This document shows positions 1 through 38,811 of a stretch of 41,732 nucleotides of DNA, one piece after another. Location of the stretch: IMG/VR virus record IMGVR_UViG_3300045988_038035, positions 1 to 41,732 of that record. One strand, given 5' to 3'. The stretch's first letter is position 1. Every line of letters starts with the position of its first letter. Source of the stretch: a virus. The position numbers and the translations under genes were made by a program. The notes below the pieces were generated by a model. The model was not told the origin of the DNA. It searched no databases and worked only from the letters and a program-made list of their open reading frames with translations.

Positions 1-141
1 CTTTTTGAGATCTTCTGTCAAGTTCTCCACGCTGCGCTGCGCCGCATAAAGCTGCGTACTGGGGTCCTGCTGCTTGAGCAGCCGCGTTGCCTGCAACGCC
101 TGTGCCGCATTTCTCTGGCGCTTTACGATGGTGTCGAGCAC
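1..141. repeat. Terminal direct repeat, copy 1 (identical to 41592..41732)
   Basis: Base-by-base comparison of both ends. Identity starts at ctttttgagatc and ends at gtgtcgagcac. Confidence 0.97.
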
Positions 142-3100
142 ATCGATAGCTGTCTCCACATCACCGCTGTTTGCTGCATTGTTGTAGAGCGCCCAGCCAA
201 TCGCCGTGTTTTCCTTGCTAATTCCCTCTTTGGTGGAACTTTTCCACTTGTTCAGGGTCTTTTGCCAGCCTTCGGTTTTGATGCGGCTTTCTGCGTCACT
301 AATGGCCTGCTTGTCCGTATAGCGGTCGTAGGAGAACTCTCCTTTTGCCACCATTCGCTCCAACGTCGGTATCATTTCGTCCGGCGTGGCCTTTGCTTCC
401 AGCACCGTGCGGATCGTGCGGCTGACGTATTTGTCATCCGCCGTCTTCTTCGGTACCTGCACTTCGCGGTATGCACGCTCGCCCGCCGGGATATATCCGT
501 ACTTCTCTTTCAGCGCTTCGTAGTTTGCCTCAGGGATCTCGCGGGAGAATTGCGCGCCATTCACGCCGTTGACATTCCCGCCATTTTGGGGTACACTACC
601 ATTCGAAGCATTGGTGGACACCCCAACAGGGCGATTATTCGCTTTAGCTGTACCGTTTTGGTACTGAAGGGGCGGTGCCGATGCTTTATTTTTATTTTCA
701 TTAAGCTGGATGGAGTAGACAAACTCTCCGTCCGGCTTTTTTCTTACATTCGCCAGCAGGTCATACACCTGTCCGTCGATCTGCACGGTCTTGACGAAAT
801 ACTCCCAGCCGGTTAGGTTTTGATGCGCCTGCGATTTCTTTCCCTGCTCGGTTTTACCTCCGTTGTAGGTCGCGTTTTCTACAAGATCGAAGATGCTGCC
901 ATCCGCGCCGGTATTGATTTTCGCTTTCCAGCCCTTTTGAGAGGATTTTTTATCGCCGTATACGTTCTTGCGAAGGTCTGCTTCGTCAAACTTCGCATAA
1001 TAGGTGTTGTTGCCGTCGCTGAATTTGGCCGTGCGCCCCGCGTACTCGTTGCGCATGATGTCCATAAAGGCTTCCATGCGCTCCTTGTAGGACATCTTCT
1101 TAATGTCCTCGCCGGTCTCGTAGACCTCGATTCCGTCCTTGTTCTTTCCGACAAGCTCATAGCTCTCCCCGCTGTCCGAAAACACCGTGTTCTCGTCGCC
1201 GGTGTCCGGCTTGCGCCCTCTGCGTTCCTCCGCCGTCAGGCCGCGCCGCGCCGCAGCGTCCCGCGCCTCGATCTCTCCCGCCGTGTCGCGGTAGAGATCT
1301 CCCGGCAGTCTGCTGTCCCTCGCGTTTCTGTCAATGCTGTCGCGCAGGCTGAAATAATCCCACACGCGGTCGCCGTATTTTTCTTCCAGCTGGTCGCGTC
1401 TTTCGTCGAAGCGCACCCATTCCGGCGGATCCGGCTCGATCTGCTCCCATGTTTCCATGTCGACTTTCCCGCGCGGCACCGTCGGCGCCATGGCGTTCAG
1501 TTCTTCCATGCTGCGCATAAACTCGGGATCGTTTGCCTTCATCTGCTCATACTGCTCGCGCAGCCGCGCGCCTTCGCGTCTGGTTTCGGCGTCCCTGCCG
1601 TCATATCCCTCCTCGAGTTTTCTGTTCCAGTATTTCAGATTTGCCCCGGGTGTGAAGCCCTCTCTTTGCTGAATGGCGTGCTGTACCTCATGAGTGAGGG
1701 AATTCAGCAACGCCTCCGGTCTGTTTTTCAGGTCGCGGCTCAGTTCAATACTGTCGAACCTGCGGTTATACCCGCCGTTCTGCCCGCGCTCAAGCGTCTG
1801 GAACATTACATCCATATCTCTCATGTCCGGATAGGTGGCGAACAGCGCCGGCGCGTCCACCAGCTCGCCCAGCGTGGTGTAGTTGGGGATGGACTTTGCA
1901 GCCTCTTTCATTGTTTCCAATGTTAGCGCCCACTTCTCAAAATCGTCGCCAAACTCTCCGGTCAGCTTCTCGTATAGCGCCTCGTCGGCCTCTCCGCGCT
2001 CCGTGCTTCTCTGGTAGTCCGCAAGGTCTCTCCTCTGTTCGTCCGTCAGCTCGCGGTTGGTCAGCCTATCCCATGCATGGGTTTTCTCCCGCAGCTCCGT
2101 GTCGTAGTCATATAACCCAGATTCAAAGCGCAGCTTCATGCCGCTGTCGTCGGTTTCCCATCTCCATTTTCCGTCGGCGCCGCGGAACCAGCCCGTTTTC
2201 TGCCGGATCGTCTCAGCATCAGCCCCGTTTTTCTCCATCTCTTTCGCCGTATTAAGCGCTGCTTTGTCTGCATTCTTCGCTTTCTCGCCTGCATAGCTGA
2301 ATTTTTCGCGTACCGGGCCCGTTCCGCTTGGCGGTGCGCGCGAGTTTTCACGCGCAACGGTTTCACTCTCCACCTTGATATGTGCAAGAAGGAATGCTGC
2401 CGCATCGCTGATCTCGCTGTCGGCGAAAATGTTCATATCGCCGAGGCTGTCGCAAACCATCTCTTCCCAAATCTCCTGCGCCGTCATTTCGGTGCCGGCA
2501 TAAGCGTCTGCGTATGCCGTACAGAGGAATCCAACTTCTCCGCTGGTAAAGGTCTTATCGATGCGCGTGCGTACCTCGTCCAGATCAACTTCGCCCTTTG
2601 CGATCATATCATGTCCGGCCTCATGCCGCATGATCTGGTACGACGTAAATTCCGGATGGTCTGCACGGATAAACACGCGGTCGCCCGAAACGTAGCCGCG
2701 CGCCTGGAACGTTTTCCCGTTCTTGCTGCGGAACGTCAGATTATTTCCGGCAAAAAACGTCACGCGCAGGCCGCGCTCTTTGGCGAGGTCCTTCGCCTTG
2801 CGCATTTCCTCCGTCTCGTTCTTCACAAGATAGACGCTGTCATTGACCGCGCCTCTGCCGATGCCGAAGCTCGCAGTGCTTACTTTTTCTCCATAATCGA
2901 GCGCAGCTGCTTCGCTGTCTGCGAAGTGTCTCCCTTTCTTCCGGCTCTGATCTCGTCCTGTGCTTTCTTCCACGCCTCGTACTTCTCCGCGGGGATTCGC
3001 ACCGTTATCCCGTTCGCTGCCGTCGCGTAAATGTACTGCTTCTCCATGTTCGACTCCTTCCTGCTGCGCGTATTCTGCGCGCAACTCGTCCATTGTCACC

Positions 3101-5175
3101 TCTCCTGTCTCGAGGGCAAGGCGGTTGTCAGTTACATACTTGTCAAAGCCGGTCGCCTGCGCCTCTGCGCCTGCGATCTGCTGCTTTGCTGCAATATAAT
3201 CCGTGTTTGGGGCGACCGCCGTTCCATCAGCAGCAGTGTACCCATTCGTTAGCATGTCGTCAAGCACGATCTCGAGTGTTTTTGCCGCTTTGACGTTCTC
3301 CTGCCCATTATTGTTGATAATGCGCTGCGCGGCATCAATGATTTGCGTGCGCGTCAGGCCCTCGTCCATCGCCTTGCGCATGGCAGGTGTCTCGAATATC
3401 TGATTGTTTCTCTGGTATCCGTTTGCCGTCCGCTGCCGCGCGCCCTTCTGCTGCCCGCGCGAAAGGCTTATATCTGCGATACCGGCGATCTGCTCTGCTG
3501 CCGCGCTGTAATAACTGTGCAGCTCTGGGTGGTCGAACTGGAAAGCGTTCACGTTTCTGCCCGATACGTTTTCCTTCGTGCGGCTGTCAATGTGCTCGCC
3601 CGTTCCCGCTGCCGCCTTCGCGTCGTTCTGCCCTGCGACATAGCCTGCATAGGCCGTCTCATTCGTCGGGTTCGGGTTCGCCTTGCCCTCTACGCCCGCG
3701 TTGTAGGCGGGCAGGAAGTCCGCGACGTGCTGCGCCGTGTCCTTGCCCTCCTGGTACGAGCCGCGCATCGCCTTGCGCCCGTTCTCGCCGATCATATCGT
3801 TGTAGCGGGCAAACAGCCGGTCGGAAATGCCGTTCACAACATCTGCATCGCTGCTGCGCGGCCCCTGCGGCAGCTCCGTGCGGCTGTCGTAATAGCCGCG
3901 GTTTGTGAGCGCTTCCACGCCGCCGCCAAGCCCGCCGAGAATGCCGCCGACAAGGAAGTCATTCAGCACTTCCGCCGCTTCCAGCTCGCTGTAGCTCCCG
4001 CCGAGCGTCTTGCCGTTGTAGATCATTTGCAGCGCGGGCTGAACAAGATCCTCAAGCACTTCCTCGCCGCCCTCTTCAAGGAACGAGAGCACGAGCTTTC
4101 CTGCAGCGCTTTTCGTGAGGTTGCCCATCGTGCGTTCAATGACATCATCAAGGAAGCCCTTGCCGAACATCTTGCGGAACGGCCCCGCCGCGTTGCCGAT
4201 CTTCTCGGTCGCCACGCTCAGCGCGCCGCTCGCAAAGCCATAGTTGACCTGCTGCTCGTGCGTTGCGCCCTGTCTGCGCGCTTCCTGCGCGCTTCCGCCC
4301 GTGCTGCGGACAAACATCGCAGGGAGTGCGCTGCCGCCCGTCAGAAGGCCAAGAGCCGCGTCCATGCCCATCTGCGCGCCCGCAACGCCGACGTCGACTG
4401 CAAGCCGCCCCGCGCCGCCAAGATCGCGCTTTGCCTTGCTGATGTCCTTTGCGCCGCTGTCGGCGAGACGGTCGGCGGCCTTGTAGATGTTGCCCGCCGT
4501 GCGCTCCACCTCACCGCCCTCGCCGTATGCCTGCAGGTATGCGGCTTTTTTTGCTTCCAGCGCCGTAATGACGTTGCGCGCCGTGTCGCGCTCAGATGCC
4601 GTGCTGCTCGGGTCTGCCAGCACGGCGCGCTGTGCCTTGATGTCCTGATCCCACAGCGCAATTTCTTTCTCGGCTTCCTCGCGCTGTTGCAATCCAACGC
4701 CTACCTGCTTCATACCCACAGCGTTGACAAATCCCGAACCGTAGGTCTTTACTGCGCCCTTTGCCGCGTTCCCGACGCGCTGCGCGACCGTCTGCGGCTT
4801 CACGTCCCTCACGTGCTGCGCAAGGGCTTCCTTGCTCTGGTACGGCTTTGCGTTTTGCTGCTGCAAAGCGCCGCTATTGAGCCCCTGCATGATGGGGCTT
4901 TGCCACTTGGGCGTCACGACATTCTGCTGCACGGTCGGCTGCTGGCGGAACATCGGAGACGTTGCCTTCTTCTCCTGTGCCGTCATCTTTGGCGTAGAAA
5001 CAGACCGATAATAAGTGTAAATCTGCTCCCGCTTGTCTTGCTTTACTCTCGCAGGCTTTTGCGCGGGTGCGTAGGAAGAGGGAGCGGGGCTGCTGACCGC
5101 AGCAGCCGCCCCACTTTTTTTCTGATACTCACGATATCCCTTGATAGAATCCAGCTTTTCCTTTTTGATCGGCAT
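1..5175 (-). CDS. Giant multidomain virion-associated (polyvalent-type) protein, 5' part (1,725 codons). Continues across the circular junction into 41591..39420, for 2,448 aa in total.
   Basis: My own minus-strand translation. ATG at 5175, GGAGGT at 5181-5186, in-frame TAA just upstream. The frame stays open to nt 1 and is the same frame as track ORF 39420..41732 once the 141-nt overlap is superimposed. It is absent from the track because no stop lies in the window on this side. Motifs: HEAGH (2611-2625), HEVQH (1678-1692), and a Gly-rich hydrophobic stretch (4309-4419). Confidence 0.8.
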   Translation of the reverse strand, partial: MPIKKEKLDSIKGYREYQKKSGAAAAVSSPAPSSYAPAQKPARVKQDKREQIYTYYRSVSTPKMTAQEKKATSPMFRQQPTVQQNVVTPKWQSPIMQGLNSGALQQQNAKPYQSKEALAQHVRDVKPQTVAQRVGNAAKGAVKTYGSGFVNAVGMKQVGVGLQQREEAEKEIALWDQDIKAQRAVLADPSSTASERDTARNVITALEAKKAAYLQAYGEGGEVERTAGNIYKAADRLADSGAKDISKAKRDLGGAGRLAVDVGVAGAQMGMDAALGLLTGGSALPAMFVRSTGGSAQEARRQGATHEQQVNYGFASGALSVATEKIGNAAGPFRKMFGKGFLDDVIERTMGNLTKSAAGKLVLSFLEEGGEEVLEDLVQPALQMIYNGKTLGGSYSELEAAEVLNDFLVGGILGGLGGGVEALTNRGYYDSRTELPQGPRSSDADVVNGISDRLFARYNDMIGENGRKAMRGSYQEGKDTAQHVADFLPAYNAGVEGKANPNPTNETAYAGYVAGQNDAKAAAGTGEHIDSRTKENVSGRNVNAFQFDHPELHSYYSAAAEQIAGIADISLSRGQQKGARQRTANGYQRNNQIFETPAMRKAMDEGLTRTQIIDAAQRIINNNGQENVKAAKTLEIVLDDMLTNGYTAADGTAVAPNTDYIAAKQQIAGAEAQATGFDKYVTDNRLALETGEVTMDELRAEYAQQEGVEHGEAVHLRDGSERDNGANPRGEVRGVEESTGRDQSRKKGRHFADSEAAALDYGEKVSTASFGIGRGAVNDSVYLVKNETEEMRKAKDLAKERGLRVTFFAGNNLTFRSKNGKTFQARGYVSGDRVFIRADHPEFTSYQIMRHEAGHDMIAKGEVDLDEVRTRIDKTFTSGEVGFLCTAYADAYAGTEMTAQEIWEEMVCDSLGDMNIFADSEISDAAAFLLAHIKVESETVARENSRAPPSGTGPVREKFSYAGEKAKNADKAALNTAKEMEKNGADAETIRQKTGWFRGADGKWRWETDDSGMKLRFESGLYDYDTELREKTHAWDRLTNRELTDEQRRDLADYQRSTERGEADEALYEKLTGEFGDDFEKWALTLETMKEAAKSIPNYTTLGELVDAPALFATYPDMRDMDVMFQTLERGQNGGYNRRFDSIELSRDLKNRPEALLNSLTHEVQHAIQQREGFTPGANLKYWNRKLEEGYDGRDAETRREGARLREQYEQMKANDPEFMRSMEELNAMAPTVPRGKVDMETWEQIEPDPPEWVRFDERRDQLEEKYGDRVWDYFSLRDSIDRNARDSRLPGDLYRDTAGEIEARDAAARRGLTAEERRGRKPDTGDENTVFSDSGESYELVGKNKDGIEVYETGEDIKKMSYKERMEAFMDIMRNEYAGRTAKFSDGNNTYYAKFDEADLRKNVYGDKKSSQKGWKAKINTGADGSIFDLVENATYNGGKTEQGKKSQAHQNLTGWEYFVKTVQIDGQVYDLLANVRKKPDGEFVYSIQLNENKNKASAPPLQYQNGTAKANNRPVGVSTNASNGSVPQNGGNVNGVNGAQFSREIPEANYEALKEKYGYIPAGERAYREVQVPKKTADDKYVSRTIRTVLEAKATPDEMIPTLERMVAKGEFSYDRYTDKQAISDAESRIKTEGWQKTLNKWKSSTKEGISKENTAIGWALYNNAANSGDVETAIDVLDTIVKRQRNAAQALQATRLLKQQDPSTQLYAAQRSVENLTEDLKK
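2880..3047 (-). CDS. 55-aa ORF embedded in another frame of the giant ORF (MEKQYIYATAANGITVRIPAEKYEAWKKAQDEIRAGRKGDTSQTAKQLRSIMEKK)
   Basis: AGGAAGGAG lies 6 nt before the ATG. GC3 by hand count is about 75% in this frame versus about 40% in the giant-ORF frame over the same nt. The ORF ends GAG AAA AAG TAA. Confidence 0.35.
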   Translation of the reverse strand: MEKQYIYATAANGITVRIPAEKYEAWKKAQDEIRAGRKGDTSQTAKQLRSIMEKK

Positions 5176-5188
5176 AATTTACCTCCGC

Positions 5189-6442
5189 TTATTCAAGCCA
5201 TTCGTCCGGGTCATAGCCAAAGTGGCTGAACAGATATCGCGCCTCCGCATCCGTCAACTTGCCTTGATCTGCATACACCGCAATCGTGTTTGCAATGCCT
5301 GTATTGCTACCGGTCTGCGTCTTCATCTTCTCTAAGCTCGATAATATTCTTGAAGCGCTACTGCTGAGCCCTCCCCCGTCATTTCCACCGTTCTGACTTT
5401 CCAGCCAGTTTTCATAGTCGGAATAGAGCCCGCTCGACGATGTAAAACCGTACTTCTGGTAGTTCGCCTTCTGTGCAAGCCAGCTCTTGGGGTTTCCGCT
5501 CGCCTGCGCCGCAGCAAACAGGCCTTCATAGTCCATCGTGCCGCCGGAATAGCCTCTCGACCCGCCGGAGCTTCTGCTGCCGCCGCTTGCTTTTTTCGCC
5601 GCCTGCAGTGCGGCCTGCTGCAATTTATACTGCCATTCCGCGTCGTAGCGCGCGTCCTCGATGGCGTCGCGTTCCTTCTGATAGTCGTACTTGAGCTTGT
5701 CCTGCTCCTTCTGATAGGCAAGGCTGTCGGCGTACTGCTGATCGCCCACCTGATCGCGCGCGAGCTGATAAAGATAGTCTCGGTTGCTGAGCCAGCGGCT
5801 GTAGTTGTTGTCCTCAAGGCCGATAAGCGTGTTGAGATTCTGCCGGTCGAGGTTGATGCCGTCCATATACATGCCGTAGGCAAGCTGCTGCAGCTCGGGG
5901 ATCTTGTCGGTCATCTGGCTCATCTGGTAGTCGCTCGCCTGCTGACTTGCCGTGACCGCCGCCGTGGACGGCATGCCGCCGGTCATCACAGCCGCCTTGC
6001 CGAGCACGTCCTCTGCGCTGCGGTCTGCCTCGCGCGTATACTGCTTGCGGTACTGCTGATAGAGCGGGTCGCTTACCGCATCGTAAGAGAACGGCTTGCG
6101 GTTGAGCATCGCGTCCAGCGCCGCGCTGATCTTGCCGTCTGCATCGTAGTTGTAGCTGCTCTCGCCCAGCTTGTCGAGCCAGCTCGTGTCAGCTTTCGGC
6201 GCGCTCGGCTGCCGCAGCGTTTCGCCGCTGTCGAGCTTGATGTAATCGCTGCCGTCAACGCCGCCGCTGTACTGGTATTTCGAGCGGATCCTTTCTGCCG
6301 CGTCGTGCGCAGCCTGCTGCCCCGCCTTGTCGCCCGCAGCGTACGCCCTGTCGTAGTTTTCGGTATACTGTCTGATGAGATCAAGGTCGTTCTGATCGGT
6401 AATCAGGCTCAGGTCGGTGTTTTTATGCTTAAAATCTGCCAT
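5189..6442 (-). CDS. Virion protein, Q/Y/G-rich (possible internal/ejection protein)
   Basis: Track ORF of 417 aa. SD GAGGGGAAG precedes the ATG. Sits in the late structural operon. No motif recognised. Confidence 0.75.
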   Translation of the reverse strand: MADFKHKNTDLSLITDQNDLDLIRQYTENYDRAYAAGDKAGQQAAHDAAERIRSKYQYSGGVDGSDYIKLDSGETLRQPSAPKADTSWLDKLGESSYNYDADGKISAALDAMLNRKPFSYDAVSDPLYQQYRKQYTREADRSAEDVLGKAAVMTGGMPSTAAVTASQQASDYQMSQMTDKIPELQQLAYGMYMDGINLDRQNLNTLIGLEDNNYSRWLSNRDYLYQLARDQVGDQQYADSLAYQKEQDKLKYDYQKERDAIEDARYDAEWQYKLQQAALQAAKKASGGSRSSGGSRGYSGGTMDYEGLFAAAQASGNPKSWLAQKANYQKYGFTSSSGLYSDYENWLESQNGGNDGGGLSSSASRILSSLEKMKTQTGSNTGIANTIAVYADQGKLTDAEARYLFSHFGYDPDEWLE

Positions 6443-6451
6443 TGCTTCCCC

Positions 6452-8038
6452 TCACTTTCTCCCGCCCGTCACATATTCGTATTCGAGCGCATAGAGCCGG
6501 TATTCTCCCTCTGCTTTGATCTTGAGCTTGAAGTGATCGCAGCGGCGAATCGGGCAGTTGAGCGTGAAAACGTCTTTCTCCTGCGCCCCGCAGCGGTCGA
6601 CCTCTTCCCACGCGCCGCCGTCGAACTTGACAAGGAACACGGCCGTTGTGCCCTTCTCGCATTCCAGCCGCGCCCGCACGCGCTGCACGTGCTTCGCGTC
6701 GAACGATCCGCCGTCATAGTCGGCAAATTCGGCAACGCTTGCAACCGCGCCCTCGCGCGTCGCCCCTGTGGGAATGTCTGCGGGGCTTCCAAGCAGCACG
6801 CACCCGCCGTCTACTAAGGCCATGATACCGCCGTGGTAGGCCATTTGCACCACGGGAAGCGCATCTTCCTTGTGCCATGTCCCGTTTTCCGTGCTGTAGC
6901 AGTAGAGCGCCGCCCCTGTGCCGGTCTTGAGGCTTGCGTAGTAGTTGAGCCCGTCGCTGCCGCCCACACCCTGTGTGAATCGCACCTCGTCCCCCAGCAC
7001 GCGCGAAATGCACCGCGGCATGCCGCCGCCGTACGCCATCACGCCCACTTTGGAGAGGTAGTAGAGCGTTTCTCCTGCGATGGCAAGGCTCTTTGCGCTG
7101 CCCTTCTGCACGCCGAGCACCGCGCTTGACATGAGTTGGAAGTTGGTCGGAATCGTGCCATACATCTTGAAGATTTTGTCCTCTTTGAAAAAGCACGGGT
7201 AGCCGAGATAGCTGACGCAGGCCGTGAATGCCCCCGCCGTGCCGCTTTCCACGTTGAACGAGCTTGTGGCCAGATTCTCAAAAACGTTCCAGTTGTAGGG
7301 GTCGCCGAGCTTGCTTGCATAGATGCTGTCACCCTTGCAGCCCCATACGCGGTTTTCGTTCGTGCAGACAAAGTCCATGTCGGGAACCGTCCGCTTGATC
7401 GTCACCGTGCCCGTTTCCGTGATGCTCGTCTGCCCGTCCGGCAGGCGGAATGTGTTCTCATAAAAGCGCAGCGTCTTTTTGTTCGCGCTGATCTCCCGAA
7501 TAACGGGTGTGCGGTTGTTGTACGGCATCTTCGTGCAGCCGGAGATCGTCACCGCGTCGCCCACGTTGAACGGGAACGCCGCGCCGGTCGTCGTAATGCT
7601 GTTCGCCGCCGCCTTTTCGTCGGCATACGTCCCGTCTCCAAAGGTAAGCCCAGCCGCGCTGTAGCTTGCCTCCATCGGCTTGATCGTCCCGTCCTTTTCA
7701 CATACGATCTTGTCCGGGAAGATGAGCACGCGCTCCCCGAGTGCGCAGAAGGTTTTTTCGCTGTCTTGGATGCTGCCCTTCTGCACGCCGCCGATGTAGA
7801 GCTTTGTCCCGTATACCTCATAGAGCTTGCCTGCGCTGAAAATGCCGTTTGCCTTGCCCATGCCGGAGCGTATGGTGTAGCGTCTCGCGCGAGGCGCGAG
7901 CAGCGGGAAAAACCGTGCCGACAGGTTGCTCATGTCGTACAGCTCGCCGCCCGACGCGCCGAACGTGTGGTTGATGCCGCCGAATTTCTCCTGCTGCATG
8001 CGCCGGTTGGCGTAGGCTGCGATCTCAGGCAGTCTCAT
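6452..8038 (-). CDS. Structural protein (tail/adaptor candidate), 528 aa
   Basis: Track ORF, tightly packed in the late operon. Function is inferred from position only. Confidence 0.75.
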   Translation of the reverse strand: MRLPEIAAYANRRMQQEKFGGINHTFGASGGELYDMSNLSARFFPLLAPRARRYTIRSGMGKANGIFSAGKLYEVYGTKLYIGGVQKGSIQDSEKTFCALGERVLIFPDKIVCEKDGTIKPMEASYSAAGLTFGDGTYADEKAAANSITTTGAAFPFNVGDAVTISGCTKMPYNNRTPVIREISANKKTLRFYENTFRLPDGQTSITETGTVTIKRTVPDMDFVCTNENRVWGCKGDSIYASKLGDPYNWNVFENLATSSFNVESGTAGAFTACVSYLGYPCFFKEDKIFKMYGTIPTNFQLMSSAVLGVQKGSAKSLAIAGETLYYLSKVGVMAYGGGMPRCISRVLGDEVRFTQGVGGSDGLNYYASLKTGTGAALYCYSTENGTWHKEDALPVVQMAYHGGIMALVDGGCVLLGSPADIPTGATREGAVASVAEFADYDGGSFDAKHVQRVRARLECEKGTTAVFLVKFDGGAWEEVDRCGAQEKDVFTLNCPIRRCDHFKLKIKAEGEYRLYALEYEYVTGGRK

Positions 8039-8201
8039 TTTTGGCCTCGCTTTCCGTCGGCTCCGTCGCGTCGCAGATGGCCATGATGTTGCGCAGCGCC
8101 TGCCGCGCCGCCGCCACCACGTCCACGCCGTCGCCGCTCACGTTCAGCATGCTGATGAGCCGCATCGCCTGCGCCGCTTCCTGCTTGATCTTTTCGTTCA
8201 T
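8025..8201 (-). CDS. Small late protein, 58 aa (start refined to MNEKIKQ)
   Basis: ATGA overlap with the stop of the fibre gene at 8198-8201. Confidence 0.6.
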   Translation of the reverse strand: MNEKIKQEAAQAMRLISMLNVSGDGVDVVAAARQALRNIMAICDATEPTESEAKNETA

Positions 8202-9559
8202 GCTGTCCCCTCCAATCGTTTTAGCCTCTTCTCCTGCTCGCGTACCTTCGCCCACAGGATCGGAATGAATTCGCTGTACCGCAGGAAATACGTTTCGCTG
8301 CCGTCCTCGCGTTTGGCAGCGGCCCAGCCCGCAAATTCCTGCGAGTCAATGCCGCATTCCTGCATCGCCGCTTCCACCTCCTGCGCGATGAATCCGGTGT
8401 GGAAGCGCCCGCTCGTGCCGCTGTTGAGCTTGTAGCGTTTCGGTTCGATGCGCTCAAACATGCTCACGTACTTCTCCGGCAGCGCCTCGATGCTGTTCTT
8501 GATGTTCCTGTCCGAGCCGTTGAGCGTGTCCGTGCTGCAATAGATCGCGTCCCACACGAAATTCCGGCTGCCGAGGTTATAGAGCGCGTTTGCGTTCGGA
8601 ATGACGTCGCCCTTGATCTGCACCTCCTGCGAGTATCCGTCCACCTCGATAGAGGCATAGTACCCCCTTGTGCTCCGATCCCATCGAGAGCCAATGAACA
8701 CACTGCCGTCGTCGCCGCCGAGCTCGATCGCGTCCGAGTCGATCTCGATCTTCGTGTCTGCCGAGCTTGCGTAGGTTGAATAGATGGTTCCGCATCTGTT
8801 CCCGTCGTCGTCCAGAATGCGGATCGAACCGCCTTGCAGGCGTTCCGCCGTCAGCGTACCGTACACATTGACGGCATCTACGTAGAGGTCGACTGAGCCC
8901 GTGCTTGCCAGCACAGCGCCGTCGTACATGAGCTTGAAGATCGTCCCGCTCTCTCCGCTCGTTGCCGCCAGCGTGATCCCGTTAAGGCTCTGGTCGATGA
9001 GCGTCTGCGCCTCCGAGCTGTTGATTTTCCCGCTTACCTGCGTGCGAATGCCGTTTACGTCCGCCGTCAGGTTCGTGATGCTGCCCTCGTTGCTGCTGAT
9101 GCGCGCGCTCAGGCCGTCCGCCGTCGCGCCCAGCTGCGTGATGTTCCCCTCGGCGCTGCTGATCCGCGCGGCAAGGCCGTCTGCTCTCGCGCCGAGCTGG
9201 GTAATGTCGCCCTTGGCGTTTTTGATCTCGGCCGCGAGCCCGTCTGCCCGCGCGCTGAGCTGTGTGATGTCGCCCTCTGCGTCGCCGATGCGCGCTGCCA
9301 GTCCCTTTGCCGTGATGCTCAGCTCGTTCACGTTTTTGTTCGTGTCCTCGATCTTGGCGTAGATCGGTTCGCGGATATTTTTGATAAAGTCGCTCATCGC
9401 ATTGGGATTGACGTTGCTGTCGTCCAGATTGAAAAGCGTGTAGCGCAGTTGTTCCAGCAGCACGAAGAGGTAGTCATAGATCCCCTCGATCTGCTCCTGT
9501 GTGTTCTTCCCTTCCCCATTTGGGAAGGTGGTCTCCACCAGCTGAAATGTCGTCGGCAC
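8198..9559 (-). CDS. Tail fibre/spike with C-terminal S74-type intramolecular chaperone domain
   Basis: C-terminus reads SDRNIKNSIEAL...FHTGFIAQEVEAAM...YSEFIPILWAKVREQEKRL, typical of the endosialidase-chaperone (Peptidase_S74) domain. GTG start. Confidence 0.8.
   Translation of the reverse strand: MPTTFQLVETTFPNGEGKNTQEQIEGIYDYLFVLLEQLRYTLFNLDDSNVNPNAMSDFIKNIREPIYAKIEDTNKNVNELSITAKGLAARIGDAEGDITQLSARADGLAAEIKNAKGDITQLGARADGLAARISSAEGNITQLGATADGLSARISSNEGSITNLTADVNGIRTQVSGKINSSEAQTLIDQSLNGITLAATSGESGTIFKLMYDGAVLASTGSVDLYVDAVNVYGTLTAERLQGGSIRILDDDGNRCGTIYSTYASSADTKIEIDSDAIELGGDDGSVFIGSRWDRSTRGYYASIEVDGYSQEVQIKGDVIPNANALYNLGSRNFVWDAIYCSTDTLNGSDRNIKNSIEALPEKYVSMFERIEPKRYKLNSGTSGRFHTGFIAQEVEAAMQECGIDSQEFAGWAAAKREDGSETYFLRYSEFIPILWAKVREQEKRLKRLEGTA
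9053..9304 (-). repeat. Four tandem 63-nt (21-aa) coiled-coil repeats inside the fibre gene
   Basis: The four units are GLAARIGDAEGDITQLSARAD, GLAAEIKNAKGDITQLGARAD, GLAARISSAEGNITQLGATAD and GLSARISSNEGSITNLTADVN. Confidence 0.85.
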
Positions 9560-10734: not shown

Positions 10735-10998
10735 TTAAGAAAGTGTCACATCGGCACATGGCATCACGAAATTAGAGGTCCTGTTTGTCCCTTTTATGGT
10801 GACCGTATTCCCGGTAGCCGGATCGACGAATGTCATTTTAGGTGAGACAGAGGTCGGGGGCGAAGTCGCTTCAAAGACATACCCCGGCTTTAATTTTGTT
10901 GCGCTCGTGGTGACGCGGTTATTCGCCGTGATCGTATACTCCTTTTCGCTTCCGCCGCGTCTGGGGTTGAAGATCATACTCCTTTCCTCCTTATTCAA
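10735..10998 (-). CDS. Hypothetical late protein, 87 aa
   Basis: Track ORF, in the operon. Confidence 0.6.
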   Translation of the reverse strand: MNKEERSMIFNPRRGGSEKEYTITANNRVTTSATKLKPGYVFEATSPPTSVSPKMTFVDPATGNTVTIKGTNRTSNFVMPCADVTLS

Positions 10999-13222
10999 GA
11001 TAGTTGATGGGGTAGATCGTCACATAGACGTCGATGCTTTCCGTCGGCACGGTGTCGGCGTAAAATGTTACGCTGTTCGCGCCCTGCGCGACCATCTGTA
11101 TGCTCGCCTCGTCGTAGGGATTGCCCGCCGCCGTGTTCACGGGCGTCGGAATCAGCAGCTGCTTTGTCGCGTCCGAGAGCACGCCGCTGCATGTCACCGT
11201 CTGCTGCTTGGTGCTGCTGTTCCAGCCCGATGCGGAGAGCGTCACCTTGCGCGTGGTCGGCCGCAGCGCGTAGTCCGTGCCCGCCGTCGCCGCTGCCAGC
11301 CCGCCCGAGCCGTCGCCCTTGATGAGCGAGGTGGTGATGGGGACGGTCGGCACGTCGATCTGCACCGCGCCCGTCTTGCCGTTGACGCTTGTGACAGGGT
11401 ACGGTGGCGGATTCGCGGAAGAGTACTGCCTCTCGTTTGCGACGTAGGAAAGGCCGACGTCGCTCTTGCTCACGCTTTGCAGCGCGCTGTCCGCCTTGCT
11501 GAGACTTGCCTTGATGCCCGCAGAGACGTCGTTGGTCGTCACGGTATCTTTAAAGGCAAGCCAGCCGAGGTCGTTGAACCACTTGGCGATCTTTCCCATA
11601 AGGATCGCAAGTTTCGTGCCGGATTCCAGCGCCGTGCGCGTGGAAGCAACCGTGAACGTCACCTTGGCATCGCTGCTGTCGACCTTCCCCGCCGCTTCCT
11701 GCGCGATCTCGTTGACGTCCGCCGCCGTGAAGTAGTCCACGCCTTTGACGGGCGTCTTTCCGTCTGCGCCGTCTTTCCCAGGCAGGCCGTCCGCGCCCTT
11801 GGCTCCGTCTTTGCCGGGAGCGCCGTCCGCACCCCTCTCACCGGGATCGCCCTTCTCCCCGGGGTCGCCTTTCGCGCCAGTGTCGCCCTTCGGGCCTTTG
11901 AGATTCACGGTCTCAGGATTCGCCTTGCCGCCGTCGTTCGACCACGAGAGATCGCCCGCCGCGCTCATACTCGGCGTAAACGTCACGCCGTCGCGTCCGT
12001 TTGTCCCGTCCTTACCCGGCGCACCGTCTGCGCCCTTGGCTCCATCTTTGCCGGGCGCGCCCTTCTCGCCGGGGTCTCCCTTCGGGCCCTGAATGCCCTG
12101 CTCGCCGCGCGGGCCGGGGTCTCCCTTCGCGCCTGGATCGCCCTTCGCGCCCTGCAAGGGGCCGTTGTTGATGAACTCGCCGGTAATGCCGTCGAAAATA
12201 TAAATGTCGTAGGGCTCCGCCGTGCCCACACCGTAAGCATCGCCCGCCTTTGCCGTCGCCTTCTGCTCCGCGTCCAGCTCGGCCTTGCTCTCGTAGTAGC
12301 TCAGCACCGTGAGGCCCTTGCCGGTCTCACCGCGCGGGCCCTGCTCGCCTTGAACGCCCTGCTCGCCGCGCGGGCCTTGCGGGCCGATGGGGCCGGTCTC
12401 GCCGGTGTCTCCCTTCTCGCCGCGTGCGCCGGTTGCACCCGTTGCGCCGGTCTCTCCCTTGGGGCCGACGGGGCCTTGTTCGCCGCGCAATCCTTCAAGC
12501 TGCGCAGGCGTGAAGTCCGAATAGGTGAAAGGATCTCCCTTCTCGCCTTTTTCTCCCTTCTCCCCTCGGGGGCCAGCTGCGCCGGTATCGCCCTTGGGGC
12601 CAACCTCGCCGCGCGCACCAGTCGCGCCGGTTGCGCCGACGGGGCCGCGCTCACCCTGCATGCCGCGCTCGCCCTGCTCGCCCTTGTCTCCCTTGGGGCC
12701 GGTGTCGCCCTTCGGACCGGTCGCGGCAACGCCCGTGTCGGTAAAGGCGTTCTGCGCCGCGTCCCACTTGAACCAGTGTCCGGTGGTGCTGTCCACGTAG
12801 GGCATCTTGGAGACCGCCGTCTCCGCGCTCGCCCCGGCCTTGAGCACCTCGTCCACCCAGCTCTGATATGCCGGCGGCGGAGTCTCCGAGCTTTCGCCCA
12901 TCGCCGCGCGCACGCGCGTCTTGTAGATCTGGCTTTTGGCGATTACGTCACCCATCGTATAGCGCAGCTCTGCGCGTCCTTCTCCGGGCGCGTAAGTGTC
13001 CGTATTGCTTACCGTCCAGAAGAGCACGCCGCCCTCTTCGCTGAGCGTTACGGGATACGGCGCCGCGTCGCCCTCTCGCTGCACGATCAGGCCGAATGCG
13101 CCGCCCGCGCCGTAGGTCTCTCGCCATTTGTCTGCAATGTCGAAGCTCACCCTGCGCGCCTTGTTTTCTCCCTGACGCCCGAGGTTGATTTCCTGCATTA
13201 CGTATGCCTTTTCTTCAATCAT
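10991..13222 (-). CDS. Collagen-like repeat fibre/receptor-binding protein (BppU-like N-terminus), 743 aa
   Basis: Start refined to MIEEKAYVMQEINLGRQGEN with SD GAGAGGTGA. Contains four Gly-X-Y blocks. Confidence 0.8.
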   Translation of the reverse strand: MIEEKAYVMQEINLGRQGENKARRVSFDIADKWRETYGAGGAFGLIVQREGDAAPYPVTLSEEGGVLFWTVSNTDTYAPGEGRAELRYTMGDVIAKSQIYKTRVRAAMGESSETPPPAYQSWVDEVLKAGASAETAVSKMPYVDSTTGHWFKWDAAQNAFTDTGVAATGPKGDTGPKGDKGEQGERGMQGERGPVGATGATGARGEVGPKGDTGAAGPRGEKGEKGEKGDPFTYSDFTPAQLEGLRGEQGPVGPKGETGATGATGARGEKGDTGETGPIGPQGPRGEQGVQGEQGPRGETGKGLTVLSYYESKAELDAEQKATAKAGDAYGVGTAEPYDIYIFDGITGEFINNGPLQGAKGDPGAKGDPGPRGEQGIQGPKGDPGEKGAPGKDGAKGADGAPGKDGTNGRDGVTFTPSMSAAGDLSWSNDGGKANPETVNLKGPKGDTGAKGDPGEKGDPGERGADGAPGKDGAKGADGLPGKDGADGKTPVKGVDYFTAADVNEIAQEAAGKVDSSDAKVTFTVASTRTALESGTKLAILMGKIAKWFNDLGWLAFKDTVTTNDVSAGIKASLSKADSALQSVSKSDVGLSYVANERQYSSANPPPYPVTSVNGKTGAVQIDVPTVPITTSLIKGDGSGGLAAATAGTDYALRPTTRKVTLSASGWNSSTKQQTVTCSGVLSDATKQLLIPTPVNTAAGNPYDEASIQMVAQGANSVTFYADTVPTESIDVYVTIYPINYLE
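11750..12718 (-). repeat. Collagen-like G-X-Y triplet repeat region (four blocks)
   Basis: Runs such as GPKGDTGPKGDKGEQGERG are visible in the translation. Confidence 0.9.
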
Positions 13223-13246
13223 CTCGTCACCTCTCTTATGAGAAAC

Positions 13247-13285
13247 GGCGCAGCAAGAGCGACTTTTTTCGTCCCTTGCTGCGCC
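13247..13285 (-). terminator. Hairpin (11-bp perfect stem) with weak U-tract between the 92-aa gene and the fibre gene
   Basis: GGCGCAGCAAG...CTTGCTGCGCC followed by GTTTCTC on the minus strand. Confidence 0.5.
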
Positions 13286-13323
13286 GTGTCGCAACTCATT
13301 TTTGTGTTTCGCGGAGTATTTAC

Positions 13324-13602
13324 TTATACGTTGTGCGCTTTCGCGCTGTCCTCGTAGTCGCTGCTCATCGACTGAATGAGGTTTGCGGTCGAGGCGTCCT
13401 GTTTCATCTGGTTCTGGATCGCCCACAGGAACTTTCTCTTGATCTGCACGGTCACACCGCGTCGGATCAGGCACGATTCACCGTTCACACACACCAGCAA
13501 GTCGTCTTTGTACTTGCCGTTGTCCTTGAACAGGCGGACGCTGACGTATTCCTCGCCTGCGCGGGCGGCATCAGCAGCCGGATTGATCTTTGCTTCGCTC
13601 AT
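13324..13602 (-). CDS. Small protein downstream of the capsid gene, 92 aa
   Basis: Track ORF with SD GGAGGGAAAA. Confidence 0.7.
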   Translation of the reverse strand: MSEAKINPAADAARAGEEYVSVRLFKDNGKYKDDLLVCVNGESCLIRRGVTVQIKRKFLWAIQNQMKQDASTANLIQSMSSDYEDSAKAHNV

Positions 13603-13658: not shown

Positions 13659-14915
13659 TTAGGTCAGCGGGGTCTCGCCAAACGTGGAGGTGGATTCCAC
13701 GCGGATCATATACGCCTCAACCAGACGCTCGGCAACCTTGGTGGCCTTCCAGCCGACGGTTGCGCGCTGGTTCAGCGGGTCAGCAGTGCCGGCAGAGCCG
13801 AGCGGCTTGACGATATGCTCAAGGCCGCCGTCGGTCAGCTCGGTCGTGCCGTAAGCCTCCGCGCCCATGATGAGCGTGGAGTAGACGTTGCGGCCCTTCG
13901 CGCCAGCTTCGCCGGGATAAACGACGGTCGATGCCGCCGGGGAAGTGGCAGGAGCGTCTTTCAGTGTGATCGTCGCGCTGCCCGCAGCCGCAGCCGCGGC
14001 GCTCTCGATCTCAAGGATCTCGCTGCCGATGATAACCATGCGGCCCGCGAGCTTCGCGGCGTCGTCCGCCGTGATGGTCTCATTGACGGTGATGGTCTTG
14101 CCGCTTGCGCTCTTGACCTTGAGCTCGCGTGCGCCCTCGGTGAGGTTTTCGGCATGGAACACCTTCGCCTCAGTGGTCTCCACAAAGCGGACGCCCGCGA
14201 TCTTGCCGATCTCATCGTCATAGATGTTGGCGGTGTCCTTGTACTCGTGGGGGCGCTTCCAGTCGGGGTCGTCCTGAATGTCGTAAGAGCAGTCCGGGTG
14301 AATGATCGCCCAGTAGGAGCCCTCATAGCGCGGCGTGTTCATGGTTTTCAGGAAACGAACCGCCTTGCGGACGGCACGCACCGTGAAATAGTGGTTGCCC
14401 GTGGCCTCGCCGCCGACGAGCAGATGACGGCCCGTCACCTGACCCTCGCCGTACTGGACGTTCGAGCCGCCGTTGATGACCTCGCGGGTGATGGTGTCAA
14501 GCGTGCGGCCGGCCTGAGAGCCGAGCAGCACGGTGGCCTCCTGCAGGTTGTTGTCGATGGCGGTGAGTTCAAGGATATCAGAGATCTCCACGAAATCGCC
14601 GTACTGGTCGACCTGCGCGGTCAGCGTGGTCATGGACAGCTTGCGGCCCTTGGGGGTCACGCCTTCGGTGATGGGCGTGAGCGCCTTGGGCAGCGGGTCA
14701 TACTTGCGGAACTCGATCTCCTTGCCCTTGCCCTTGGGAATGTTGCGCTTCTGCGCGAAGCGGTCATGCACCAGCTCGGGCTCTGCGTTGTCGATCAGGG
14801 TGTCGCAGTAGTAGGTTTTCATCTCGCCGGAAAGACCGGCATCGGTGGTCACGTTCGGCTGACCCTCAAAAAGGTTCAGCACGACCGGCAGAATGTAAAT
14901 GTCGTTCAGCTTCAT
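13659..14915 (-). CDS. Major capsid protein (HK97-fold; resembles the N4 gp56-type family from memory)
   Basis: 418 aa, directly after the scaffold gene. Motifs like KEIEFRKY...GVTPKG...DQYGDFVEISD. Family assignment not verified. Confidence 0.8.
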   Translation of the reverse strand: MKLNDIYILPVVLNLFEGQPNVTTDAGLSGEMKTYYCDTLIDNAEPELVHDRFAQKRNIPKGKGKEIEFRKYDPLPKALTPITEGVTPKGRKLSMTTLTAQVDQYGDFVEISDILELTAIDNNLQEATVLLGSQAGRTLDTITREVINGGSNVQYGEGQVTGRHLLVGGEATGNHYFTVRAVRKAVRFLKTMNTPRYEGSYWAIIHPDCSYDIQDDPDWKRPHEYKDTANIYDDEIGKIAGVRFVETTEAKVFHAENLTEGARELKVKSASGKTITVNETITADDAAKLAGRMVIIGSEILEIESAAAAAAGSATITLKDAPATSPAASTVVYPGEAGAKGRNVYSTLIMGAEAYGTTELTDGGLEHIVKPLGSAGTADPLNQRATVGWKATKVAERLVEAYMIRVESTSTFGETPLT

Positions 14916-16529: not shown

Positions 16530-18533
16530 TTACATACCGGGCATGGCAGCGCTGCTGCCGGTTTCCATGTTTGGCTTGCTGCGCTCAGCGAGCTTCTGCA
16601 TGTAGGGGGTCTTTGCCCCTTGCGCGTCCGCGTTCCTGCTCTCGATGCCGCCGCTGCTGCCCGTCGGCTGCGATGTGCCGCCGCCCGGCGCCGCGCCGGG
16701 AGCGGCAGCGCCAAGGCCCATATCCTGCCCCGTGAGCTGACCGATGACCGCAAGCGCCTTTTGCAGCTGCTCGCTCTGCTGCTGCACCACGTTGTACAGC
16801 GTCGCGCCCTCGTTGACCTGGCTCTTGATCTTGTCGATGCCCTCAAAATCCATCATGTCGAGTGCGATCATGCTCTCCTGCGCCCTGTCGGGGGAGAAGA
16901 ACCCGAGCGAATACAACTCCTTTGCTCGCTCGTTCTGCTCTGCGCGGGAGAACGGATTCTTTTTCTGCGCCTTGATCTTGATGTCAAAGACCGGCCTGCG
17001 GAACAGCTCATTGCCGAGGCTGTCCACGCCCGTCACCTGATCGCCCAGCTCGTTCATGCCGATTTGCGCGTACTCGTAGGGCATCTCGTTCGTAATGCGG
17101 AAAGATCTCGTCGCGTCGTAGAACTGCCGCATGCGCTCAATACACATGCGCACGATCTTTGTCTGCGCGCGGTAGCCGCCAGCAATCATGTCACGGCTCG
17201 CCTTGTTGCCCGCTTCCTGCAATGCGCTGATCGCCGCTGCGGCTGTCGCGCCGGAGGACGTTCCACCGTTGGAAACGTCGCGGTTTGCGCTCGTTTCCTT
17301 CATCTCATCGATCTTCATCTGCACGATGTTGGCATAGATGCCGTCCAGCGGGCGCGTCACCACCTCGCGCAGGCGGTTGTCGTTGATCTCGCCCGACACA
17401 TGGATAATGGGTTTGCGCCAGTCAAGGAACTCCTGCTCGTTGATGTTCAGGCTCTCGCTTGCGAAATACCGGCGCTTGCTGCCCATCATCGACGTTTCGA
17501 GGATATTCCCCCACAGCTTGTCGATGTATAGCTGCGGATCCTTGGCGATGGCCGTATAGCCGAAGCCTGCGGGCGAGCCCCTCTCCGGAAAGAGCGTGTC
17601 GAACACAACCGGATATTCCCCGTCCGCGTAAAAGCCGTCCTCGGCGCATTCCGGGTCATTTTCGCTCGCGTAGATGATGTGCTCCTCATCGATAAACTTG
17701 ACGTAATGCAGCACCATGCGCCCGTTTACGTCCTTTTTGCGGTAGTACCAGTCCACCACGGCAACCTTGCCGCTCGTGTCGATGGAATCGTCATACTCAT
17801 ACTTTGCAAGCGACACGCTGCTGCCGCCGATCTTGCCCGCGAACTGCGGGTATTCCTCCTCGAGGATATCCTCATCGACAAGCGACACGGTAAACACGTT
17901 CCGGCTCTTCTGAATATCCTCAACGCCCGGTTCCCAGAAGATATTCAGCGGGTCGATACGCTCAATGGCAATGTCGCCAAGGCCGTTTTCCTTTTCCTTG
18001 TCCCAGAAAATGCCGTAGATCGCGACGCCGTGCTTGAGCTTTTCCCACCATTCGACGCTGTAGGTGTTGTCAAATTCATTGTATTCCATGATGACCGGCA
18101 GCACCGCCGAGAGCGTCTTTGCGCTTTCCTCGTCGCTCGGCTCGCGCGGCAGGCACACCGGCTCGGGGTAGTTGTCCATTGCGTCCGCGTGCTTGTTGGT
18201 GATGGAATTGAAAAGCCATGCGCTCACAGGCTCGGGCGCTTCTCCTGCGTCCTGCGTGCCGCGCCGAATGTCCTCCCAGTGCCGCAGCTTCCACCATTGC
18301 TCTTCGCTGATGATGCGGTTTTCGAAGTTGCTCTTGCCTCGCCGATACTTCTGCAGCGTCTCTACCGCCTCGCCGACCTCCTTGCTGCCGATGGCCGGGC
18401 CGCTGGTAAGCGTAACGTCGCTGTCCCGGAATGCGCCGACAAGCGGCGCGCCGCCCTTTGCCCCGAGCATTGCCGCCGTGCCCGCCGCATCCGCCTGCTG
18501 CTGCGTCTGCGGGTATCTTCTCATGTTTGCCAT
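16530..18533 (-). CDS. Portal protein
   Basis: 667 aa, immediately downstream of terL. SD AAGGGGGAAGG. Call is based on size and position. Confidence 0.8.
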   Translation of the reverse strand: MANMRRYPQTQQQADAAGTAAMLGAKGGAPLVGAFRDSDVTLTSGPAIGSKEVGEAVETLQKYRRGKSNFENRIISEEQWWKLRHWEDIRRGTQDAGEAPEPVSAWLFNSITNKHADAMDNYPEPVCLPREPSDEESAKTLSAVLPVIMEYNEFDNTYSVEWWEKLKHGVAIYGIFWDKEKENGLGDIAIERIDPLNIFWEPGVEDIQKSRNVFTVSLVDEDILEEEYPQFAGKIGGSSVSLAKYEYDDSIDTSGKVAVVDWYYRKKDVNGRMVLHYVKFIDEEHIIYASENDPECAEDGFYADGEYPVVFDTLFPERGSPAGFGYTAIAKDPQLYIDKLWGNILETSMMGSKRRYFASESLNINEQEFLDWRKPIIHVSGEINDNRLREVVTRPLDGIYANIVQMKIDEMKETSANRDVSNGGTSSGATAAAAISALQEAGNKASRDMIAGGYRAQTKIVRMCIERMRQFYDATRSFRITNEMPYEYAQIGMNELGDQVTGVDSLGNELFRRPVFDIKIKAQKKNPFSRAEQNERAKELYSLGFFSPDRAQESMIALDMMDFEGIDKIKSQVNEGATLYNVVQQQSEQLQKALAVIGQLTGQDMGLGAAAPGAAPGGGTSQPTGSSGGIESRNADAQGAKTPYMQKLAERSKPNMETGSSAAMPGM

Positions 18534-29313: not shown

Positions 29314-29843
29314 TCCTCCGCCTCCAAATACACCATCGCGCTCTGCACGCCAAATACGCGCGCCGCCTGATGATCGTTGAAAAACACGTCGATGTGGTTG
29401 CCGTTCACGCCGCCGCCGCAGTCCTCCGAGATGTAGCTGTGCTGCGTGCCGTCCGGCCAGATCAGCAGCACGCGCGTCCCGTAAGGGATCACCTTCGGGT
29501 CGACCGCGATCGTGCGTCCTTCGGTCGCCAGCGTGCCGGTCGCAGTGTAGCCGCTTGCCCACTTGCCGCAGCAGCAGCGTCCGGGACAATAGGCCGTGAG
29601 CGTAAACTCGCCAAGAAAAACGTCATTGCACACGGCGCTTTCGGTCGCGGGGATATCCCACGCGGGGTCATACTCCTCCGAGACTACCGAGGATTCCTCG
29701 GGGCTTGCTTCGACCGCCTGCGCGCTGGTGGCGAGGATTGAGATCGCGATCAAGATGACCGCCGCGCCCAGGCACGCCGCCGCAATCAGTGCCGATTCAT
29801 CGGCCTTGCGCTGCTCTCTCGTGCGCTTGTCGTGCCGTCTCAT
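29310..29843 (-). CDS. Membrane-anchored 3D-domain (MltA/RlpA-like) cell-wall protein
   Basis: N-terminal TM segment, then FTLTAYC...GTLATEGRTIAVDPKVIPYGT...DCGGGV. Confidence 0.65.
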   Translation of the reverse strand: MRRHDKRTREQRKADESALIAAACLGAAVILIAISILATSAQAVEASPEESSVVSEEYDPAWDIPATESAVCNDVFLGEFTLTAYCPGRCCCGKWASGYTATGTLATEGRTIAVDPKVIPYGTRVLLIWPDGTQHSYISEDCGGGVNGNHIDVFFNDHQAARVFGVQSAMVYLEAEE

Positions 29844-38810: not shown

Positions 38811-38811
38811 G

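Follow-up and report, generated by a model that had tools for sequence, protein, structure and literature searches.

A giant polyvalent protein encoded across the circular junction of a phage genome is a candidate ejection protein with exchangeable cargo

Giant proteins packaged in phage virions are already known. Coliphage N4 carries a very large virion RNA polymerase, gp50, in its podovirus capsid and, according to one account (PMC13434306), expels it together with two other ejection proteins. The very large gp47 of the Stx phage phi24B was detected in virions by proteomics and has been proposed to be an ejection protein, and gp60 of Pseudomonas phage H66/F116 (Hollowayvirus), a 3,787-residue 'PLxRFG domain-containing protein', is a virion component verified by mass spectrometry, as noted in its GenBank record. 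Here we analysed the 41,732 nucleotides of IMG/VR virus record IMGVR_UViG_3300045988_038035 (positions 1 to 41,732; 'the window'), in which a gene on the minus strand encodes a comparable protein of 2,448 residues. Like the polyvalent proteins described by Iyer et al. (2017; PMC5512222), this giant protein is a multi-domain polypeptide with large polyvalent protein-associated domains (LPD) and with HExxH modules that are predicted to be zincin-like. Its constant C-terminal module (C-module) resembles an internal virion protein of marine podoviruses, and we consider it likely that it is an ejection protein housed inside the virion that also serves to deliver effector domains.

Reading frame across the circular junction

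A comparison of the window ends showed that nucleotides 41592–41732 are an exact copy of nucleotides 1–141, giving a unit genome of 41,591 bp. The repeat is probably an overlap from circular assembly and not biology; its length, which we take to be the largest k-mer of MEGAHIT (141), would account for the duplication. On the minus strand, the frame that starts at ATG 5175–5173 is free of stop codons down to nucleotide 1 (1–5175; residues 1–1725), 5175 being divisible by 3. Once the duplicate was removed, the frame ran on into 41591–39423 and ended at a stop codon at 39420–39422, completing the product with residues 1726–2448. A Shine–Dalgarno sequence, GGAGGT (5186–5181), lies five bases 5' of the ATG, its last base overlapped by an in-frame TAA (5181–5179). 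Because this stop is directly upstream, ATG 5175 is unambiguously the first possible start. A preliminary description, made by a model from the letters alone, had already proposed a 2,448-residue open reading frame (ORF) across the junction, with this ribosome-binding site and upstream stop, and it was borne out by joining and rotating the sequence, by re-translation without an in-frame stop and by independent scaffolds. The two HExxH motifs lie where it had placed them, HEAGH from residue 851 (nucleotides 2625–2611) and HEVQH from residue 1162 (1692–1678), and all other peptides that it quoted were found in the product.

Over positions 1–5175, the mechanical ORF list contains plus-strand ORFs only, and it represents the giant frame by a truncated 770-residue piece (39420–41732). 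Codon-position GC agreed with the earlier view that the listed ORFs are antisense shadows: the giant frame has a GC content at third positions (GC3) of 0.69, and the plus-strand ORFs show the shadow pattern of high first-position GC and lower GC3. By this measure, the minus frame is the coding frame. Linear treatment of a circular contig had cost the ORF caller about 18% of the coding capacity, with antisense shadows reported instead, a loss that can be remedied by rotating or doubling circular contigs ahead of gene calling.

The complete ORF appears only once the window ends are joined through the 141-nucleotide overlap, and we therefore weighed the explanation that it is an artefact, either a join of halves from different molecules made by the assembler or a chance open frame. 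However, a public scaffold of the same genome in ENA (LIUW16-1_SAMN05414911_METAG-scaffold_270; 41,591 bp) has another break point: it starts at window coordinate 38913, in the lysis region, matches the window along 10,854 bp with 0 mismatches, and contains the junction internally, with the 2,448-residue gene called whole (P0001, an identical protein). A 97%-identical protein of 2,449 residues is encoded without interruption, and next to the same genes, within a 42,353-bp contig and within a 136,590-bp scaffold, and more than 100 relatives of 2,300–2,450 residues occur on independent contigs, several of them internal to long ones. The codon-position GC resembles that of real genes, and the domains match curated families. 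The artefact is thus refuted as far as sequence data can refute it, and we put its chance at practically nil; on the same data, we regard the giant ORF and its junction as real.

Constant C-terminal module, cargo modules and cassette exchange

To draw module borders, we compared the protein with 149 representatives of the family and with 200 closer relatives. Coverage by the representatives rises from 24 to 141 of 149 at about residue 1550, and homology starts at about residue 1545, marking the C-module (residues 1545–2448), which is encoded on the minus strand by 1–543 (residues 1545–1725) and 39423–41591 (residues 1726–2448). When residues 1726–2448 were searched against 1.84 billion representatives (E < 1e-3), 7,375 representatives (clusters at 50% identity) matched. 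The module was always C-terminal, in proteins of 671–3,973 residues, and the best 150 matches were 51–69% identical over the whole 720 residues (99% for the phage's own cluster). Invariant columns include EGILPFRKTPANILVRG, TLDWLAPEALPFF, MSCLQSL and IDAWGR; NPRTHVRN, AEDAWF and ILPFRKTPANI lie in the same part.

The C-module alone matched PHROG 6651, 'internal virion protein' (E 8.5e-10, 38 bits), as did 4 of 12 diverse C-module members; the match is partial, covering about 90–330 residues. PHROG 6651 contains gp16 of Prochlorococcus phage P-SSP7 (1,317 bits) and internal virion protein D (IVP-D) of the pelagiphages HTVC011P and Eyrgjafa. The genes for these proteins follow tail tube A/B and a further two or three genes for internal proteins, which is the gp16 position. 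Consistent with this match, a hidden Markov model (HMM) that we built from 219 C-modules found only the IVP-D ORF in the two pelagiphage loci (HTVC011P, 46.2 bits; Eyrgjafa, 41.9 bits), lining up NPxTHxxN, AEDxFF and PFxxTPxN. A tblastn search of the motif region against 50,697 phage records returned 7 sub-significant matches (E 0.8–9), 6 of which lie in genes annotated as internal virion protein or IVP-D and 5 of which are pelagiphage records. When the predicted structure was compared with the predicted viral structures of BFVD, Foldseek ranked C-terminal pieces of gut-virome polyvalent proteins first and internal virion proteins of Pelagibacter and Synechococcus phages next (E 1e-9 to 1e-7, probability 1.0). 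Taken together, these comparisons indicate homology between the C-module and the gp16-position internal virion protein of marine T7-like podoviruses. No match to the module was found in Pfam, NCBIfam or the PDB, the last searched by sequence and by fold.

PHROG 6651 was missed at E < 0.01 when all 2,448 residues were scanned, the LPD23-containing PHROG 13543 being the sole match, so scanning giant proteins whole can hide domain matches. The 5' part had no megablast match among 50,697 GenBank phages, phmmer with the whole protein found none among all PDB sequences, and an NCBIfam scan of the whole protein gave nothing at E < 0.1.

Family comparison divides the protein into at least seven separable modules. 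A variable, low-complexity N-terminus (residues 1–250) is followed by a Gly-rich, weakly hydrophobic module (250–450; nucleotides 3826–4428, minus strand as for all modules), which is present in 27–71 of the 149 representatives, usually near the N-terminus. Residues 450–740 lie between it and the first HExxH module (749–945; 2341–2931), a predicted zincin-like metallopeptidase with HEAGH at 851 and a conserved Glu at 905. Next come LPD23 (959–1015; 2131–2301; Pfam PF18838, E 1.9e-22), a second HExxH module (about 1090–1330; 1186–1908), which is a predicted gluzincin with HEVQH at 1162, AGEIEAR at 1299–1305 and an insert of about 100 residues, and an LPD3 region (about 1340–1490; 706–1158). A low-complexity linker (1490–1545) leads to the C-module.

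The two LPD matches agree with the earlier assignment to the polyvalent proteins, as do relatives with the same C-terminus that carry PBECR5, MuF_C or eCIS_core, and in nr a close relative already bears the label 'Large polyvalent protein associated domain 23'. Comparable terminal ORFs of 8 kb that resemble LPD3 have been noted before in prophages of Clostridium clostridioforme. LPD23 is 46% identical to residues 2136–2204 of H66 gp60. The LPD3 match (Pfam PF18798, residues 1426–1487, E 3e-6) is barely above its cut-off, at 27.8 bits against 27, and in the AlphaFold2 (AF2) model the region is mainly beta, with low confidence; lipocalin-like Foldseek matches of this region in the PDB had probabilities below 0.3 and were not used. 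MuF and PBECR domains, which had also been suggested, do not occur in the giant protein itself (no match to Pfam MuF, MuF_C or PBECR at E < 0.1) but do occur in allelic relatives.

Hydrophobic Gly-rich segments had been reported as well. The Gly-rich region is present, but its hydrophobicity is weak: the best Kyte–Doolittle windows reach 1.2–1.4, with 1.2–1.3 for the module at residues 250–450, below the typical transmembrane threshold of about 1.6, and we dropped a transmembrane interpretation. Only non-significant local BLAST matches (E 0.5–0.6) linked this module to the N-terminus of H66 gp60. A profile of the module also gave a non-significant match (E 0.084 in a tiny database), which we did not use, to residues 179–253 of the Eyrgjafa internal virion protein (L079, 6694–10395). 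Were that N-terminal resemblance genuine, the giant protein could be described as an internal virion protein that has received cargo in its middle.

Comparison of close relatives revealed exchange of the middle of the protein. In phages whose C-modules are 94–98% identical (relatives P0276, P0283, P0287, P0310 and P0334), the giant proteins range from 1,448 to 2,518 residues; residues 1–950 and 1535–2448 are kept, and the middle (about 950–1535; window 543–2325) is replaced. Break points recur near residues 950–960, 1016/1056, 1290, 1341–1370 and 1510–1539. Replacement cargo includes PBECR5 (P0276) and LPD23 with MuF_C (P0283); among more distant members, eCIS_core or a C-terminal KTSC domain occurs. 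The gene for a short form of 1,257 residues (P0170) precedes the fibre genes, the arrangement also seen for gp16 in T7. The family is abundant in gut metagenomes, with 2,250 clusters at 90% identity matching the whole protein. In one locus (L081, 4149–11811), the giant gene is split into a 1,577-residue ORF with PBECR5 and a 936-residue ORF with the C-module, 118 nucleotides apart. A 936-residue protein (P0349) that we had considered as a relative consisting of the C-module region alone proved to be the 3' half of this split allele, and we do not take it as demonstrating a stand-alone module; P0170 is the better example of a short form.

The HExxH modules had been put forward as metallopeptidases, which is plausible. 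Neither motif varies among 120 relatives. When 30 diverse sequences were aligned, E113, H116 and E166 of module 1 proved nearly invariant; the first two are the Glu and the second His of the motif, and the last is a Glu 50 residues further on. The AF2 model, which covers residues 740–1500, gives module 1 a predicted local distance difference test score (pLDDT) of 85–98 and orders its elements as a helix, a small beta-sheet, the HExxH helix and a later helix with the conserved Glu, which fits the core order of zincins given by Iyer et al. (helix, beta-sheet, HExxH helix, Glu helix; PMC5512222). Module 2, with a pLDDT of 80–92 around the motif, is colinear with H66 gp60 (HEVQH...AGEIEAR here, with the insert; HELQH...AGEVEAR there). 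Homologues of the modules match DUF6782 'putative metallopeptidase' (1.3e-7), Peptidase_M78 (3.9e-5), SprT-like and eCIS_core; the first three were found among module-1 homologues, and the eCIS_core match is weak and lies on the module-2 HExxH helix. These motifs and models suggest that both modules are likely to have a zincin-like fold and may act as proteases, although neither the Pfam family MPTase-PolyVal nor a PDB fold was matched.

Genome setting, proposed role and rival readings

All late genes lie on the minus strand. In the order given, the large terminase (18546–19976) is followed by the portal (16530–18533), a 411-residue protein, the major capsid protein (13659–14915), an 827-residue collagen-like fibre (10991–13474), two small proteins, a second fibre with a Peptidase_S74 chaperone domain (8198–9559), a 528-residue protein (6452–8038) and a 417-residue protein (5189–6442), the last directly upstream of the giant gene. 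The 528-residue protein matches PHROG 511, 'internal virion protein' (E 4.9e-51), with nothing found against the PDB, and the 417-residue protein has no Pfam or PDB match; both are candidate partners of the giant protein. Among 71 related genome loci scanned (L005–L075), 16 have a homologue of the 528-residue protein (25–36% identity) upstream of the giant gene, and the 417-residue protein is syntenic in 21 related loci. Directly downstream are the lysis genes (37994–39341), comprising an XhlA-like protein (39003–39341), two small ORFs and a Peptidase_M15_4 endolysin (37994–38611). The position between tail and lysis genes noted in the preliminary description therefore stands, specified as after the tail-fibre and internal-virion-protein genes. 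No terminator- or promoter-like signal above chance was found near the 3' end of the giant gene, before the lysis genes, and no tRNA genes were found.

A tyrosine integrase is encoded on the plus strand (33981–35096; PHROG 1, 6.5e-49), and the phage is therefore temperate. Related prophages occur almost exclusively in gut Clostridia, chiefly Oscillospiraceae, with Lawsonibacter, Pseudoflavonifractor, Intestinimonas and Massiliimalia as cultured hosts; gut Clostridia are thus the likely hosts. Cultured strains with a family member include Lawsonibacter hominis NSJ-51 (L024; C-module 57% identical), Pseudoflavonifractor sp. Marseille-P3106 (L019) and Intestinimonas aquisgranensis (L074). The genome also encodes a DNA methyltransferase (29840–30718, minus strand; PHROG 67, 1.6e-50). 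The 827-residue fibre protein has collagen-like repeats and matches about 50 PHROGs of tail fibres. Its position is taken in L001–L003, the 97%-related phages, by a 529-residue gene and a 372-residue DUF6273 gene, so close relatives exchange the fibre region too. One of these (L003) has a different integrase (401 residues, Phage_int_SAM_3) followed by other mobile-element genes. In two further loci, from Massiliimalia timonensis and a Clostridiaceae metagenome-assembled genome (L027 and L034), homologues of the 411-residue and major capsid proteins lie downstream, not upstream, of the giant gene, so gene order around the family is not fixed.

In the model that we infer for packaging, ejection, proteolysis and targets, the C-module would be a structural chassis built into the capsid core near the portal, incorporated together with the 528- and 417-residue products. 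At infection, the chassis would be expelled through the short tail and would help to form a conduit for DNA, carrying the upstream array into the cell as cargo. This cargo would consist of the family-conserved N-terminal region, including the first zincin-like module, and the exchangeable middle cassette, here LPD23, the second zincin-like module and LPD3. The HExxH modules would most likely cleave the polyprotein into working parts or cleave host defence proteins, and both processing of the polyprotein and attack on host proteins have been proposed for polyvalent proteins generally (Iyer et al., PMC5512222). Replacement of the middle cassette by nucleases and other domains would be expected from an arms race with host defences. 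The candidate role in ejection raised in the preliminary description thus gains support from the PHROG 6651 homology and from the virion-detected analogues, H66 gp60 (mass spectrometry) and phi24B gp47 (proteomics). The position of the gene late in the operon, after terminase, portal, capsid, fibre and PHROG 511 genes and directly before the lysis genes, is also consistent with such a role.

Several observations weigh against this role. The C-module is linked to gp16-position proteins by way of PHROG 6651 and the pelagiphage proteins, over about 300–500 of 900 residues, and the gp16 label of these proteins rests on synteny and size (P-SSP7 record note). Our HMM did not directly detect gp16 or gp15 of either T7 or P-SSP7. 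The AF2 model of the C-module is all-alpha but only moderate in quality (pLDDT 62.9; predicted template modelling score, pTM, 0.42). Foldseek found no match for it in the PDB, and its template modelling scores to internal virion proteins are low (0.3–0.4), with both sides being predictions. Profiles of the 528- and 417-residue proteins, built from 18–24 homologues, showed no similarity to T7-like gp14 or gp15. On the enzymatic side, the giant protein has no match to Pfam MPTase-PolyVal, and its HExxH modules had no fold match in a Foldseek search of the PDB. Gut Clostridia are taken as single-membrane hosts, and a T7-like trans-envelope role is not simply transferable to a phage whose likely hosts are Clostridia. 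One review places ejection-protein genes in podoviruses that infect Gram-negative bacteria and states that phi29-like phages, with Gram-positive hosts, lack them.

One alternative is that the giant protein is an external tail component, such as a central needle or knob, a wall-degrading tail protein or a tape-measure equivalent, instead of an internal ejected protein. Its gene adjoins the tail-fibre genes, and the protein is long and largely helical, like tape measures; yet the gene is last in the operon, behind the fibres, and a scan of ten structural genes yielded no tail tube, sheath, chaperone, terminator or tape-measure family. We accordingly rejected the tape-measure identity, in agreement with the earlier statement that the phage has none. 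The authors of the phi24B study suggested that the peptidase of gp47 degrades peptidoglycan, which would suit a wall-degrading tail protein; here, scans of Pfam, PHROG and NCBIfam detected no cell-wall hydrolase family and no receptor-binding or beta-helix domain, and the family that the C-module matches is one of internal virion proteins and not of tail proteins. No genes for a tail adaptor or nozzle were identified in the genome, so that some neighbours have no assignment, but the variable RNase-like cargo of the relatives would be sensible inside a cell and not on a tail. On balance, we consider an external tail component unlikely.

The protein might instead be a late cytoplasmic polyprotein with a role in anti-defence, toxicity or superinfection exclusion, unpackaged and resembling internal virion proteins by common descent only. 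Polyvalent proteins are known outside a virion context as well (Iyer et al., PMC5512222), and the split allele (1,577 + 936 residues) suggests that the parts may act separately. A cytoplasmic protein would sit less easily with the strict synteny with an internal-virion-protein gene and with the detection of analogues in virions. The C-module, moreover, stays C-terminal at the high identity seen among the top 150 matches and is 55–61% identical in many of the related loci in which the neighbouring 528- and 417-residue proteins are mostly just 25–45% identical, a pattern that fits strong structural constraint. We judge this explanation to be slightly less probable again than an external tail component.

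An ejected, cargo-bearing virion protein therefore remains our preferred interpretation. It is possible, and we suggest it tentatively, that the C-module is the ejection chassis in a very large and so far undescribed group of gut-Clostridia phages that are temperate and short-tailed, used as a modular protein-injection platform in which fixed N- and C-terminal parts flank a hot-swappable anti-defence or host-takeover cassette. If this is true, a polyvalent protein would be an ejection protein with inserted cargo, a general answer to how such proteins enter the capsid and the cell. The link between the C-module and gp16-position proteins would offer a concrete, testable route for the packaging and delivery of polyvalent effector arrays. 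The precisely bounded cassette is a natural catalogue of candidate anti-defence cargo in Clostridia phages, and it could also guide engineered protein delivery by phages.

Comparison with known systems

Measured by the features tested here (LPD domains, a setting among virion genes and mosaic architecture), the giant protein belongs, on sequence grounds, to the polyvalent class. As in the proteins of Iyer et al. (PMC5512222), it is encoded among the virion genes of a portal–terminase phage, and its orthologues differ in architecture, here through exchange of the middle cassette. By contrast, the phage fusion partners in that study are MuF and portal domains, whereas the constant partner here is internal-virion-protein-like, and the Pfam models MPTase-PolyVal, MuF and PBECR have no match here. 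The text of that paper contains none of the terms internal virion, gp16, ejection and internal core. We found no published description in which the constant C-terminal partner of this large family is an internal-virion-protein homologue.

The proteins of PHROG 6651 (P-SSP7 gp16 and IVP-D of HTVC011P and Eyrgjafa) share the core of the C-module, including NPxTHxxN, AEDxFF and PFxxTPxN, show Foldseek similarity to it at low template modelling scores, and are likewise encoded late in the structural operon, after other internal-protein genes. The homology is restricted to part of the C-module. They differ in having about 1,230–1,250 residues without a polyvalent array, whereas here about 1,540 residues of cargo precede the module, and in infecting Gram-negative marine bacteria instead of gut Clostridia.

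H66 gp60 resembles the giant protein in coming from a temperate podovirus, in being encoded directly before the holin and endolysin genes and in having a colinear block of LPD23, HExxH and AGExEAR. Its C-terminal anchor is different, being the NCBIfam 'tail-700' PLxRFG domain (NF032893, 796 bits) and matching other PHROGs, and it carries a methyltransferase-like region. We rejected ILPFRKTPANI as a 'PLxRFG' motif: hhalign gave a probability of 0.1, NCBIfam gave nothing at E < 0.1 and our HMM did not match. The 'tail-700' domain (L004, 11908–13956; the C-terminus of H66 gp60) also ends giant families of 1,664–4,647 profile positions, among them PHROG 10089 'DarB-like antirestriction', and in phages of Proteobacteria it seems to provide giant virion proteins with a second constant C-terminal anchor, unrelated to the C-module.

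Among the established ejection systems, N4 gp50 carries an HExxH MPTase (Iyer et al., PMC5512222) and differs in its RNA polymerase, which is not present in the giant protein, and phi24B gp47 combines LPD domains with a MuF-C domain; tblastn of the whole giant protein gave no match to N4-like or Stx phages. T7 gp16 (PHROG 342) offers a parallel in layout, with an enzymatic domain N-terminal to a helical ejection or channel part and a gene that is the last of three encoding internal proteins. It belongs to another PHROG, shows no similarity to our HMM, and its enzyme is a lytic transglycosylase, which Pfam and PHROG scans did not find here. By these sequence comparisons, the giant protein is a member of neither the PLxRFG group nor the T7 gp16 family; it shares its modular cargo with the polyvalent proteins and its C-terminal module with the gp16-position proteins of PHROG 6651.

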